A DNA stretch of 64,000 bases, from contig JAFEDL010000017.1 in the NCBI GenBank assembly GCA_018241645.1, forward strand, positions 33,057 through 97,056. The letters are read 5' to 3'. A program made the position numbers and the translations under genes. Shown here one piece after another: positions 24,949-30,225 of this stretch. Source of the DNA: Pseudomonadota bacterium (GTDB lineage Bacteria > Pseudomonadota > Gammaproteobacteria > Burkholderiales > SG8-39). Each line of letters opens with the position of its first letter. The first letter of the stretch is position 1. Below the pieces are notes generated by a model. The model was not told where the DNA came from, made no database searches, and saw only the letters and a program-made list of their open reading frames with translations.

Positions 24949-26241
24949 TCAAGCCGACTGTTTCGCATGCGTTTCGCGCGCAAAGCCGAACGCGGCGAGA
25001 CCGGCAACGAGCCACACGAGCATCAGGGTGAACCCGCCTGCATAGGCGGAAAAGCCGTACGCGCGCACGTCCCCGGCCATGGTCCCGTCCCAGCCGAGGT
25101 CGAGCAGCCAGCCGATCAGCGGCTGCATCGCCATGCCGCCCAGCATGTTGCCCATGTTCGCGACGCCTGACGCGGTCCCGGCGAGCGCGGCGGGGGCCGA
25201 CTCCTTGCAGAACGCGAATCCGATGACCACCACGCCCGATGCAAGGCCGAGCCCGATCATCAGTGCCACCAGCAGCCAGTACGGCAGCCCCGGCAGGTAG
25301 ATGAGCACCGCCCACAGCAGCACCGCAATGCTTCCACCGGCCAGGATCGGGAGCTTCCTGCGGTGCAGCCGGTCGGACAGCGCGCCTGCGATCGGGCTGC
25401 CGACGGCCCAGGCAACCAGCATCACCGATGTCACGAACGCCGCCTGCCCGGTGGACATGCCGTATTGGGAAACCAGGAACGGCACGCCCCACAGGCCGCC
25501 AAACGCCAGCATCGGGCCGGTGATTGCGCCGCAGCCGATGAAATTCAGCCACACGTTGCGATAGCGGAATACTTCGCGAATGCCGCCGAGCATCGAATGC
25601 CGAGGCCGGGCTCCCGGGTCGGCCGTCGAGAAGCTGAGATAGCCCCGCTCGCGGGGATCGTCGCGCACGAAGAGCCAGGTCACCACGGCCAGAACTGCCG
25701 TCACGACCGCAGCCGCCAGCATCACCCAGCGCCAGCCGAACGCGTCCACCGCCATGCGCAGCGGCACGCCGGCGGAGACCCCCCCGATGCTCCCGCACGC
25801 CAGCGCGAGTCCCGACACCAGCGCGAACCGGGAAGGCTGGATCCAGTGGGTTGCCAGTTTTAGCATGGCCACGAACGCGACCCCCACGCCCGCGCCGACG
25901 AACAGGCGCCCGGCCCCGACCAGCGCGTAACCGCCGGCCTGGGAAAAGACCAGCGTGCCCGCAGCGGCCAGCAGCCCGCCGGCTGCCAGCACCCGCCGCG
26001 GCCCCCAGTGGTCGACCAGCACGCCCGTCGGGATCTGGATGGCGACGTAGGTGTAGAAATACAGGGCCGACAGGTTGCCGAGCGCCATGGCCGAGAGCGC
26101 GAATTCAGCCATCAATTCGTGCGTGATGACGGCCGGGGCCACCCGCTGGAAGAACCCGATCAGGTACAGGCCGGCCCCGAGCCCCCAGACGGCCAGGGCA
26201 ACGCGTATCGGCGGGAAGTGCGCGGGATCGGATCGGGGCAT
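24949..26241 (-). CDS. MFS transporter
   Basis: Track ORF 24949-26418 trimmed to ATG 26241 (MPRSDPAHFPPIRVALAVWGLGAGLYLIGFFQRVAP...). About 12 predicted TM segments and an MFS-like loop motif LVDHWGPRRVL. Confidence 0.8.
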   Translation of the reverse strand: MPRSDPAHFPPIRVALAVWGLGAGLYLIGFFQRVAPAVITHELMAEFALSAMALGNLSALYFYTYVAIQIPTGVLVDHWGPRRVLAAGGLLAAAGTLVFSQAGGYALVGAGRLFVGAGVGVAFVAMLKLATHWIQPSRFALVSGLALACGSIGGVSAGVPLRMAVDAFGWRWVMLAAAVVTAVLAVVTWLFVRDDPRERGYLSFSTADPGARPRHSMLGGIREVFRYRNVWLNFIGCGAITGPMLAFGGLWGVPFLVSQYGMSTGQAAFVTSVMLVAWAVGSPIAGALSDRLHRRKLPILAGGSIAVLLWAVLIYLPGLPYWLLVALMIGLGLASGVVVIGFAFCKESAPAALAGTASGVANMGNMLGGMAMQPLIGWLLDLGWDGTMAGDVRAYGFSAYAGGFTLMLVWLVAGLAAFGFARETHAKQSA

Positions 26242-26295
26242 CGGGAATGTCCGCGAAGGTGGGCCGCGGCAGACATGCCCATTATACGTGCGCGG

Positions 26296-26325
26296 TTGAC
26301 ACGTCCCCGCGCCGGCGGGGACAAT
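26296..26325 (+). promoter_or_regulatory. Candidate sigma-70 promoter for the metH leader
   Basis: TTGACA (26296-26301), an 18-nt spacer, then GACAAT (26320-25). The -35 is perfect and the -10 matches 4 of 6. It lies in the divergent MFS/metH intergenic region. Confidence 0.35.
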
Positions 26326-26372
26326 GCCGCCTTGAGGAACGCGCTCCATCAACGCGTTGGCGCCGATTTGAG

Positions 26373-26468
26373 GTTCAGCTTGCGGGCGCCCGGCAAGACG
26401 CATTTGCCGGAAAAACAAATCCAGCTAAAGAGACGAGGGCCGCAACCCGTTTCTGGCGCAAGCTGAAC
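26373..26468 (+). promoter_or_regulatory. Long-range 12-bp helix (putative antiterminator) enclosing two small hairpins in the metH leader
   Basis: GTTCAGCTTGCG (26373-26384) is the perfect complement of CGCAAGCTGAAC (26457-26468). The enclosed hairpin CCGGCAA (26390-96)/TTGCCGG (26404-10) lies inside. The helix overlaps the terminator 3' arm. Confidence 0.45.
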
Positions 26469-26482
26469 GGGTTTTTTGTTTT
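26444..26482 (+). terminator. Terminator-like hairpin immediately upstream of the metH RBS
   Basis: AACCCGTT (26444-51) pairs with AACGGGTT (26466-73) across a 14-nt loop, followed by TTTTGTTTT. No plus-strand gene lies upstream for it to terminate. Confidence 0.5.
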
Positions 26483-26496
26483 CTGGAGTCCCTGTC

Positions 26497-30225
<3,729 letters not shown>

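Follow-up and report, generated by a model that had tools for sequence, protein, structure and literature searches.

The leader of metH in the window, as the whole 64-kb stretch of DNA analysed here is called, most probably is a SAM-II riboswitch (RF00521, metA motif) equipped with a terminator/antiterminator switch, a reading that sequence comparison supports with a probability of about 0.9. The aptamer is placed at 26359–26435 on the plus strand by the matches of a covariance model (R1), by a partial match to RF00521 and by the scores of orthologous leaders. The element belongs to SAM-II by sequence and structure, it is conserved in orthologs, and the leader contains mutually exclusive helices of similar energy. 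The original prediction had described an attenuator of unclassified type in front of metH; its picture of a metabolite-responsive terminator/antiterminator with its own promoter holds, and the lack of a class does not, the aptamer being SAM-II.

The metH gene (26497–30225, plus strand) encodes a cobalamin-dependent methionine synthase of 1242 amino acids, in which Pfam recognises the five MetH domains S-methyl_trans, Pterin_bind, B12-binding_2, B12-binding and Met_synt_B12. Its best matches are proteins of uncultured Betaproteobacteria and Burkholderiales MAGs with 73–76% identity. The GTG start had been located correctly at 26497, and the ribosome-binding site GGAG, read from the sequence, lies at 26485–26488 on the plus strand, one base away from the earlier assignment (26484–87). 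The upstream neighbour is indeed divergent: it is an MFS transporter gene on the minus strand (24949–26241; Pfam MFS_1, E 3e-44) and lies outside the switch. A sigma-70-type promoter is predicted at 26296–26325 (plus strand), exactly where a TTGACA-N18-GACAAT candidate had been proposed, with the −35 box TTGACA at 26296–301, an 18-nt spacer and the −10 box GACAAT at 26320–25. It is the sole promoter-like site in 25900–26800, with 0.0 expected by chance, and a TTGAC(A/G)-N17-CA(G/C)A(A/C)T promoter occupies the matching position 5' of P1 in the orthologs L001, L003, L005, L006, L016, L127 and L158. A leader peptide, already considered unlikely, was ruled out, as the sole ATG (26323) opens an ORF of only 3 codons (Met-Pro-Pro-stop) that overlaps the −10 box. 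The 5' leader hairpin AACGCG/CGCGTT (26338–26358, plus strand; read from the sequence) directly abuts P1. L001, the closest ortholog, carries a different hairpin, GTGCGCAATGCGCAC, at this position, and most other orthologs have no hairpin there.

The SAM-II/metA motif, listed in Rfam as SAM_alpha (RF00521), was reportedly described by Corbino et al. in 2005, and its crystal structure (2QWY) is said to have been determined by Gilbert et al. in 2008. The window shares with this class P1 and the H-type pseudoknot, the GAUUU triplex strand, the UUGC/GC-U-AA helix and the A-rich L3. P1 consists of six base pairs (26359–64 with 26385–90, plus strand) and closes the loop that starts with the L1 triplex strand GAUUU (26365–69, within GAUUUG at 26365–70). 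The pseudoknot strand CUUGC, which contains the P2b 5' strand UUGC (26380–83), pairs with GC-U-AA (26424–28) on the same strand. The P2b pairs are C26383–G26424, G26382–C26425, U26381–A26427 and U26380–A26428, so that G26424, C26425, A26427 and A26428 form the 3' strand and a single U, U26426, stays unpaired opposite the ligand. P2a (plus strand; 5' strand 26375–76, 3' strand 26432–33) has the two pairs C26376–G26432 and U26375–A26433. In this it resembles the metX crystal construct, while the alpha-proteobacterial consensus has a GC-rich P2a of 5 bp; such a longer P2a was considered for the window and rejected, since by eye only two pairs hold. The A-rich L3 (26411–19, plus strand; AAAAACAAAU = 26411–20) follows the insert described below and lies between P1 and the P2 3' strand; in SAM-II, this loop makes minor-groove contacts with P1. 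In the crystal structure, the SAM-contacting or triplex residues are U10–12, U20, U21, G22, U44 and A45–47, and following this work U26426 would correspond to U44, with which the adenine of SAM pairs (PMC3303485). All ligand-pocket and triplex residues are present in the window, namely U26367–69, U26380, U26381, G26382, U26426 and A26427–29. These equivalences combine the residue roles of the structural study with an alignment to the Rfam consensus; the underlying numbering is what we take to be that of the 2QWY sequence, and it agrees with the residue names used in the study.

As in other SAM-II elements, the aptamer lies in the leader of a methionine-pathway gene and is followed by an intrinsic terminator. 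The latter extends from 26444 to 26482 on the plus strand and is composed of a stem (26444–52 with 26465–73), an inner GGC/GCU stem and a U-tract (26474–82). Its outline had been recognised before, as a pairing of AACCCGTT (26444–51) with AACGGGTT (26466–73), followed by TTTTGTTTT (26474–82). With the inner stem, the hairpin reaches −14.4 to −15.0 kcal/mol, a value that none of 300 shuffles attained, and the U-tract is found on the plus strand only. Among orthologs, covariation is seen at the outer stem pairs, which are A-U in the window versus G-C or C-G in L003–L006. A consensus terminator scanner accepts loops of up to 8 nt and hence made no call at 26444–82.

The competing helix is formed by GTTCAGCTTGCG (26373–26384), which covers the aptamer linker and the 5' strands of P2a and P2b, and its perfect 12-nt complement CGCAAGCTGAAC (26457–26468), made up of the terminator loop and the first 3–4 nt of the terminator 3' arm, both on the plus strand. 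No complement as long as 12 nt was obtained in 200 shuffles of the aptamer loop, and the 12-bp antiterminator helix belongs to the minimum-free-energy fold. Terminator and competing helix exclude each other, as had been suggested, and the two folds are nearly isoenergetic (−41.5 kcal/mol with the terminator versus −42.9 kcal/mol with the antiterminator). Blocking the aptamer loop and tail during folding yielded the terminator fold. Across the wider set, 27 of 86 elements contain, in the downstream region, 7 nt or more that are complementary to the aptamer loop; such complements are most conspicuous in the terminator loop and 3' arm, and in 25 of these 27 elements the match is significant against shuffles (p <= 0.05). 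This longest-exact-complement test was used in place of a comparison of duplex energies between aptamer loop and downstream region, in which real (−15.5 kcal/mol) and shuffled (−14.2 kcal/mol) sequences are barely separated in this GC-rich sequence. A formal test of whether the variable linker covaries with the terminator 3' arm gave a marginal result (P = 0.054), and we suggest antiterminator covariation for individual examples only. The antiterminator may be assisted by a putative helper helix, in which GAGACG (26430–26435, plus strand), immediately 3' of the aptamer tail, can pair with CGUUUC (26448–53) in the terminator 5' arm; it appears in the fold in which the antiterminator is forced. 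GAGACG and CCCGTTTC are kept in the metH-leader subgroup (L002–L006, L016, L127 and L158, and L001 with CCTGTTTC). Neither strand varies among orthologs, and the helper helix therefore has no covariation support. Taken whole, the leader shows no more folding stability than shuffled sequence (z = −0.05); the evidence for it lies in specific helices and their conservation rather than in global stability.

The SAM-II core was found in 13 of 80 metH loci, directly 5' of metH and on the metH strand, in the form (G/C)GCGCC-GAUUUGA-n-AGCUUGCGGGCGC ... ACAAAUnCnGCUAAAG, and the alignment of orthologous metH leaders, recommended in the original prediction, shows conservation of the core, in addition to the covarying outer stem pairs of the terminator. 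Relatives precede metX, metZ/metY, metA, metH and metK-like genes, identified by visual inspection of their N-terminal sequences, and the element is always located 5' of genes of the methionine pathway, with the same orientation as these. With the window left out, 73 other elements were used to build model R1, which matches the window at 26359–26390 (39 bits, E 1.6e-8) and at 26413–26437 (17.5 bits, E 0.006); these matches are collinear and the best two in the 64 kb. Neither pattern nor model search showed a further copy of the element within the window, and the best weak match elsewhere (1615–1653, 11.5 bits, E 0.23) lacks the motif. P1 is 96.6% paired in the relatives, with changes on both sides at five of its six pairs and with CG 23, AU 19, UA 8 and UG 6 times at the outer pair. 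Its covariation score was reached by none of 500 shuffles, and all slid registers are only 34–57% paired. The P2b pairs are 99.7% paired but invariant in the 73 relatives and thus show no covariation, which is partly due to the metagenome search pattern that fixed the P2b 5' strand. P2b is therefore predicted from complementarity and homology. The second P2a pair covaries (UA 35, AU 7, UG 6, CG 3), and the xAAAU segment of L3 keeps each of its three adenines and its U either without exception or in at least 90% of the 73 rows.

The window differs from SAM-II in an additional 19-nt hairpin between P1 and L3, as well as in its beta-proteobacterium-like host and in metH as the regulated gene. The inserted stem-loop, CGGCAA-GACGCAT-TTGCCG (26391–26409, plus strand), separates the P1 3' strand from the A-rich L3 and folds with −11.2 kcal/mol (z = −4.2 against shuffles); both this hairpin, previously delimited as CCGGCAA/TTGCCGG at 26390–26410, and the AACGCG/CGCGTT hairpin at 26338–58 had been noticed before. 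Twelve other elements carry hairpins at the same junction, and all 13 inserts fold as hairpins with a mean z of −2.9, even though their sequences are unrelated. An insertion at the P1/L3 junction is also present in Burkholderia and Ralstonia metX/metZ leaders in the alignment of Leyn et al. (2014), and P3 of SAM-V sits at exactly this position (PMC6061858). The hairpin at 26391–26409 may thus be a tolerated peripheral stem, the positional equivalent of SAM-V P3.

Two other views of the insert deserve attention. The hairpin-bearing beta-proteobacterial elements could constitute a functionally distinct subclass of SAM-II, characterised by the P3-like stem, a P2a of 2 bp and two antiterminator helices that together tie up both arms of the terminator. 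In such a subclass, the ligand response might be retuned by the extra stem or, in this lineage, by the 5' hairpin that abuts P1; alternatively, these might introduce a further signal suited to the control of metH, for instance a protein or the SAM/SAH balance. This proposal has little probability, and a milder version is more likely, in which metH is a previously unlisted member of the SAM-II regulon and RF02424 and the "metXZ element" merge into RF00521. Highly improbable is the idea of a degenerate, inactive SAM-II relic, in which the 19-nt insertion broke the aptamer and left the terminator constitutive or otherwise controlled. The insertion does lower the database score, but it folds as a clean hairpin, and its junction holds a natural helix in SAM-V and inserts in the 12 other elements and in the Burkholderia and Ralstonia leaders; moreover, decay would not preserve all core residues together with a perfect 12-bp antiterminator.

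A gathering-mode Rfam scan of the whole window returned no match to any family, and the best local match to a riboswitch family is the partial one to RF00521 (14.7 bits, model positions 10–42), below the gathering cut-off of 36 bits. For RF01057 and RF00174 there was likewise no match at E <= 10 in 26200–26560, in keeping with the earlier remark that neither the SAH core nor the B12 box fits; in the same run, the SAH model does match other metH leaders. SAM-V (RF01826) and "SAM-II long loops" gave no match in the leader at E <= 10. Such scores could suggest that metH is controlled by a riboswitch or attenuator of a new, unclassified type, as originally proposed. This is very unlikely: sequences with an identical core pass RF00521, both halves of the window element are recovered by an independent model, none of the SAM-II ligand-pocket residues is missing and the motif has been published before. 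Scores of 38.6–42.9 bits with the full RF00521 model were obtained for six insert-free orthologous metH leaders, and the cut-off is failed by all four insert-bearing orthologs and by three canonical ones (L006, L016 and L059). The shortfall of the window is explained by the insertion and by the marginal position of the clade in a model whose consensus is of alpha-proteobacterial type, and for the same reasons a standard scan misses the element. The Rfam comparison once suggested as a check on the class thus provides a clear match in the orthologs and not, literally, in the window sequence. Together with the partial match of the window itself and with R1, it disposes of the "unknown class".

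SAM-V (RF01826), reportedly described by Poiata et al. (2009) and Huang & Lilley (2018), resembles the window in its pseudoknot fold, its SAM pocket and the stem-loop P3, which immediately follows the P1 3' strand and precedes the A-minor adenines. Unlike the window, it acts translationally, has a shorter P1 and occurs in marine alpha-proteobacteria and Bacteroidetes, whereas the window has a SAM-II-type primary sequence and a terminator platform. The GGAG of the metH leader lies about 50 nt 3' of the aptamer and not, as a Shine-Dalgarno sequence, in P2a.

Also close to the window is the beta-proteobacterial "metXZ RNA element" (Leyn et al. 2014, PLoS One, PMC4239095), whose six conserved regions are essentially identical to those of the window. 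They include GCGCCGAUUUG, GCUUGCGGGCGC, UACAAAU and GCUAAAG; the core regions of the window agree with the alignment of Figure S2, and the window, too, has a terminator behind them in a met-gene leader. The published model combines a pseudoknot with a terminator/antiterminator, as in the window, and its Burkholderia and Ralstonia members carry an insertion at the window's junction (PMC4239095). The element was described as novel, was not equated with SAM-II and was reported only before metXW or metZ, with one copy in each genome (PMC4239095), whereas it precedes metH in the window and in 12 other genomes of our set.

The Rfam family RF02424 (Bp2_287; Khoo et al. 2012) likewise contains the window's conserved aptamer and terminator, insertion included, in Burkholderiales met leaders, but on the opposite strand and annotated as an sRNA gene. 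The window matches it weakly on the minus strand (26337–26477, 174 of 174 model positions, 17.2 bits, E 0.09, cut-off 70 bits), and so does the canonical ortholog L005 (25 bits, E 4e-4); the available text of Khoo et al. reports detection of the transcript by RT-PCR in B. pseudomallei, does not state strand specificity there, and itself suggests a cis-acting methionine element (PMC3521395). That the locus encodes a minus-strand small RNA homologous to this Burkholderia sRNA (Bp2_Cand287_SIPHT) is barely credible and was rejected on strand-specific features: the reverse-complemented RF02424 consensus can be read as a SAM-II aptamer followed by a terminator, the minus strand has a hairpin followed by GCGGCCCTCG instead of a U-tract, the U-G pairs of P1 become A-C mismatches, and the element keeps to the 5' side and the orientation of methionine-pathway genes. 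SAM-II, the "metXZ element" and, on the wrong strand, Bp2_287 appear to be one RNA.

For SAM-II, many representatives are associated with intrinsic terminators, the motif has been suggested to act as an OFF switch and its aptamer binds SAM and rejects SAH (PMC1273637); the association with terminators is prevalent in alpha- and beta-proteobacteria (PMC2258182). For the metH leader, we infer the transcription start site, SAM binding and the direction of regulation as follows. Transcription would start a few bases 3' of the −10 box (26320–25), and the nascent aptamer (26359–26435) would adopt the H-type pseudoknot, with P1 closing a loop; the 3' portion of that loop, CUUGC, would pair with the downstream GC-U-AA tail. 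The GAUUU strand would then lie as a triplex in the pseudoknot helix's major groove, and SAM would be bound within this triplex, its adenine paired with U26426 and its sulfonium placed between the carbonyls of U26368 and U26381. At high SAM levels, the loop (26373–84) and the tail (26430–35) would be locked in the pseudoknot, enabling the terminator (26444–73 plus U-tract) to form and to stop transcription before metH. At low SAM levels, the loop would pair with 26457–68 over 12 bp and the tail with 26448–53; both terminator arms would be sequestered and metH transcribed. As the competing helix uses the pseudoknot strand of the aptamer, SAM binding should free the terminator and turn metH off.

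In beta-proteobacteria, metH is usually placed under the control of an SAH riboswitch or of MetR. Among RNA regulators of metH, the SAH riboswitch (RF01057) is the one commonly found in this group. It occupies the same genomic niche as the window element, but it has another fold and ligand and follows the opposite logic, being an ON switch with SAH. It was detected in the metH leaders of L044, L046 and L056 (55.6–64.8 bits), and the L078 leader contains its core sequence, too. The present data place metH under SAM-II in at least 13 of 80 sampled metH loci and in several metagenome contigs. Physiologically, this would be routine end-product feedback, in which SAM would shut off the last step of methionine synthesis via a well-characterised riboswitch class. 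The practical value of the finding is mostly one of curation: SAM-II is under-called in gene-regulation maps of this clade, some members escaping RF00521 because a hairpin is tolerated at the P1/L3 junction and the beta-proteobacterial clade lies at the score threshold.

The leader upstream of metH carries a SAM-II riboswitch whose aptamer is interrupted by an extra hairpin. A gathering-mode Rfam scan of the 64-kb window returned no match of any family, be it tRNA, rRNA or another known RNA. In a permissive scan, the leader weakly matched SAM_alpha (SAM-II, RF00521) on the plus strand at 26359-26390, reaching 14.7 bits against a gathering cut-off of 36 bits and covering only helix P1 and its loop. 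Among 80 loci encoding MetH relatives (best matches 73-76% identical, from uncultured Betaproteobacteria and Burkholderiales MAGs), 13 share a common core directly upstream of metH (nGCGCC-GAUUUGA-linker-AGCUUGC-GGGCGCn ... ACAAAUnCn-GCUAAAG), and six of these 13 leaders score 38.6-42.9 bits with RF00521, covering the whole model. In the four closest relatives (L001-L004), as in the window, an additional hairpin separates the 3' strand of P1 from ACAAAU, and none of these relatives reaches the RF00521 gathering score in the Rfam scan. This beta-proteobacterial clade lies at the limit of what RF00521 can detect. Three canonical SAM-II elements without insert (L006, L016 and L059, each at about 1350-1440) still fall below the 36-bit cut-off; they score 60-75 bits on the clade model, all three belonging to its building set. 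Other metH leaders of the set carry a SAH riboswitch instead (L044, L046 and L056 by Rfam scan, L078 by its sequence).

A metagenome scan by loop pattern added 120 loci, and regex parsing of the pooled genome loci, metagenome loci and window yielded 86 distinct elements. An alignment of 73 canonical elements, with the window left out, shows P1 to be 96.6% paired, with both-side changes at five of six pairs and an outer pair that is CG (23), AU (19), UA (8) or UG (6). The P1 covariation score was reached by none of 500 shuffles, and slid registers all fall to 34-57% paired. The P2b pseudoknot pairs (U-A, U-A, G-C and C-G, with a single unpaired U among them) keep their complementarity in every row; because they are invariant and their 5' strand was fixed by the search pattern, P2b is supported by complementarity and homology, not by covariation. 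The short P2a consists of one near-invariant C-G pair and a variable second pair (UA 35, AU 7, UG 6, CG 3). The two best window matches of a covariance model made from this alignment lie at 26359-26390 (39 bits, E 1.6e-8, model positions 1-32) and 26413-26437 (17.5 bits, E 0.006, model positions 34-57); they are collinear, with precisely the inserted hairpin lying between them. Each residue assigned to the SAM pocket or the triplex (U10-12, U20/U21, G22, U44 and A45-47; PMC3303485) has a counterpart in the window: U26367-69, U26380/81, G26382, U26426 and A26427-29.

The junction between P1 and the A-rich strand L3 measures 20-43 nt in 13 of the 86 elements, versus about 4 nt otherwise. All 13 inserts fold as hairpins of unrelated sequence (mean z -2.9; -4.2 for the window). 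In the SAM-V crystal structure, the P3 stem-loop leaves the P1 3' end at this same junction, before the A-minor adenines (PMC6061858), so this fold can structurally accommodate a helix there. It is unlikely that the element is an inactivated SAM-II relic, since its core is intact, its antiterminator is perfect and inserts recur at the P1/L3 junction. The original prediction of an attenuator of unknown class holds for the type of mechanism; a new riboswitch class is contradicted by orthologs that pass RF00521 and by the alignment-derived model, which recovers the window element.

The individual structures listed in that prediction are all real, as seen by reading the sequence from 26000 to 26700 and by scripted pairing; one position is corrected, GGAG lying at 26485-88 and not 26484-87. 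The terminator pairs AACCCGTT (26444-51) with AACGGGTT (26466-73), followed by TTTTGTTTT; its hairpin (-14.4 kcal/mol) is better than 300 of 300 shuffles. The competing helix is perfectly complementary over 12 nt (26373-84 with 26457-68), and such a downstream complement is absent from every loop shuffle. Hairpins are present at 26390-26410 and 26338-58, and the sole ATG yields three codons. Pfam identifies the full set of five MetH domains in the downstream gene, and MFS_1 in the divergent gene on the other side. The stability of the whole leader equals that of shuffled sequence (z = -0.05), so global folding energy is not evidence for leader structure. The hairpin at 26338-26358 adjoins the 5' side of P1, as does one of different sequence in the closest relative, L001 (about 825-845); most other orthologs are without it.

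The TTGACA-N18-GACAAT promoter (26296-26325) is the sole promoter-like site in 900 bases, with 0.0 expected, and its position is conserved in L001, L003, L005, L006, L016, L127 and L158. About 10 nt upstream of its -35 box lies ATTATA (26281-26286; TATAAT on the minus strand), conserved in L001, L003, L005, L006, L016 and L158 and probably the -10 element of a divergent promoter lying back to back with that of metH. Several orthologs have their divergent ORF beginning just 7-11 nt past TATAAT, which would make its mRNA nearly leaderless.

The 5' strand of the competing helix comprises the aptamer linker and the P2a and P2b 5' strands, which SAM binding would lock into the pseudoknot. Its antiterminator partner takes in the terminator loop together with the first part of the 3' arm. 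GAGACG (26430-35, directly 3' of the aptamer tail) could also pair with CGUUUC (26448-53); both segments are conserved in the metH subgroup, and this additional helix could hold the terminator 5' arm. Constrained folding yields -42.9 kcal/mol with the antiterminator forced and -41.5 kcal/mol with the terminator forced; when loop and tail of the aptamer are blocked to mimic SAM binding, the terminator fold results. SAM binding would thus permit terminator formation and switch metH off. A terminator is detectable in 64 of 86 elements, and 27 of 86 have a perfect downstream complement to the aptamer loop of at least 7 nt (25 of these 27 at p <= 0.05). By duplex analysis, the loop's best partner overlaps the terminator 3' half in 47 elements. 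Several single cases match linker variants (GUUC/GAAC, GCAUC/GAUGC, AUUC/GAAU, CC/GG, CGUC/GACG); this covariation is only marginal in a formal permutation test (P = 0.054). Terminator stem pairs covary among metH orthologs, with A-U in the window versus G-C or C-G in others.

Corbino et al. 2005 (PMC1273637) described SAM-II as helix P1 combined with a pseudoknot, in many cases closely preceded by a promoter and followed by an intrinsic terminator, and as binding SAM but not SAH; in alpha- and beta-proteobacteria it is mostly terminator-linked (Barrick and Breaker 2007, PMC2258182). A "novel metXZ RNA element" containing a pseudoknot and terminator/antiterminator was reported from beta-proteobacteria by Leyn et al. 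2014 (PMC4239095), who did not equate it with SAM-II; the element was apparently never merged with RF00521. In their Figure S2 alignment, its core is identical to the window and SAM-II core, and Burkholderia and Ralstonia rows contain insertions at the window's insert junction; it was reported before metXW or metZ only, whereas the window element precedes metH. Khoo et al. 2012 (PMC3521395) placed Bp2_Cand287, now Bp2_287 (RF02424), upstream of metZ and metX and suggested a cis element. The permissive scan weakly matched RF02424 to the window leader (26337-26477, minus strand) over all 174 model positions. Its consensus in reverse looks like a SAM-II aptamer plus terminator, and in L005 (1367-1470) its match overlaps an above-threshold RF00521 match on the opposite strand; RF02424 probably has the wrong orientation and duplicates SAM-II. 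A minus-strand sRNA is contradicted by the plus-strand U-tract, by the G-U pairs and by an orientation that stays the same with respect to the methionine-pathway genes. SAM-II, the metXZ RNA element and RF02424 thus appear to be one element known under three names; the window element is distinguished by having metH as its target and by its P3-like insert.

Other arrangements occur among the collected loci. Behind the first aptamer, and after its terminator where present, lies another SAM-II-like aptamer of more divergent sequence (GAUUUAA..CAACUUGCGG..GCUAAAG) in L154 (on the minus strand, downstream of 1112-1167), L159, L099, L087/L106 and L193; this looks like two SAM-II elements in tandem. 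The second aptamer of L154 stands ahead of a metK-like ORF. In L164 (3674-3740) and L181 (2672-2735), the aptamer tail GCUAAAGAGAC runs straight into a metX-like ATG with no terminator; here the aptamer apparently serves to switch translation, the Shine-Dalgarno sequence lying within P2. Genes beyond the classic methionine set are likewise preceded by SAM-II elements of this clade (L123, L149, L157, L172, L173, L176, L198, L101/L192); judged by eye from N-termini, these genes appear to encode periplasmic substrate-binding (KEIRVDYATYNPVS...), sulfate-binding-like, sulfite-reductase-like and peroxiredoxin-like proteins. The value of the finding lies mainly in database curation and in adding metH to the SAM-II regulon of some beta-proteobacteria.
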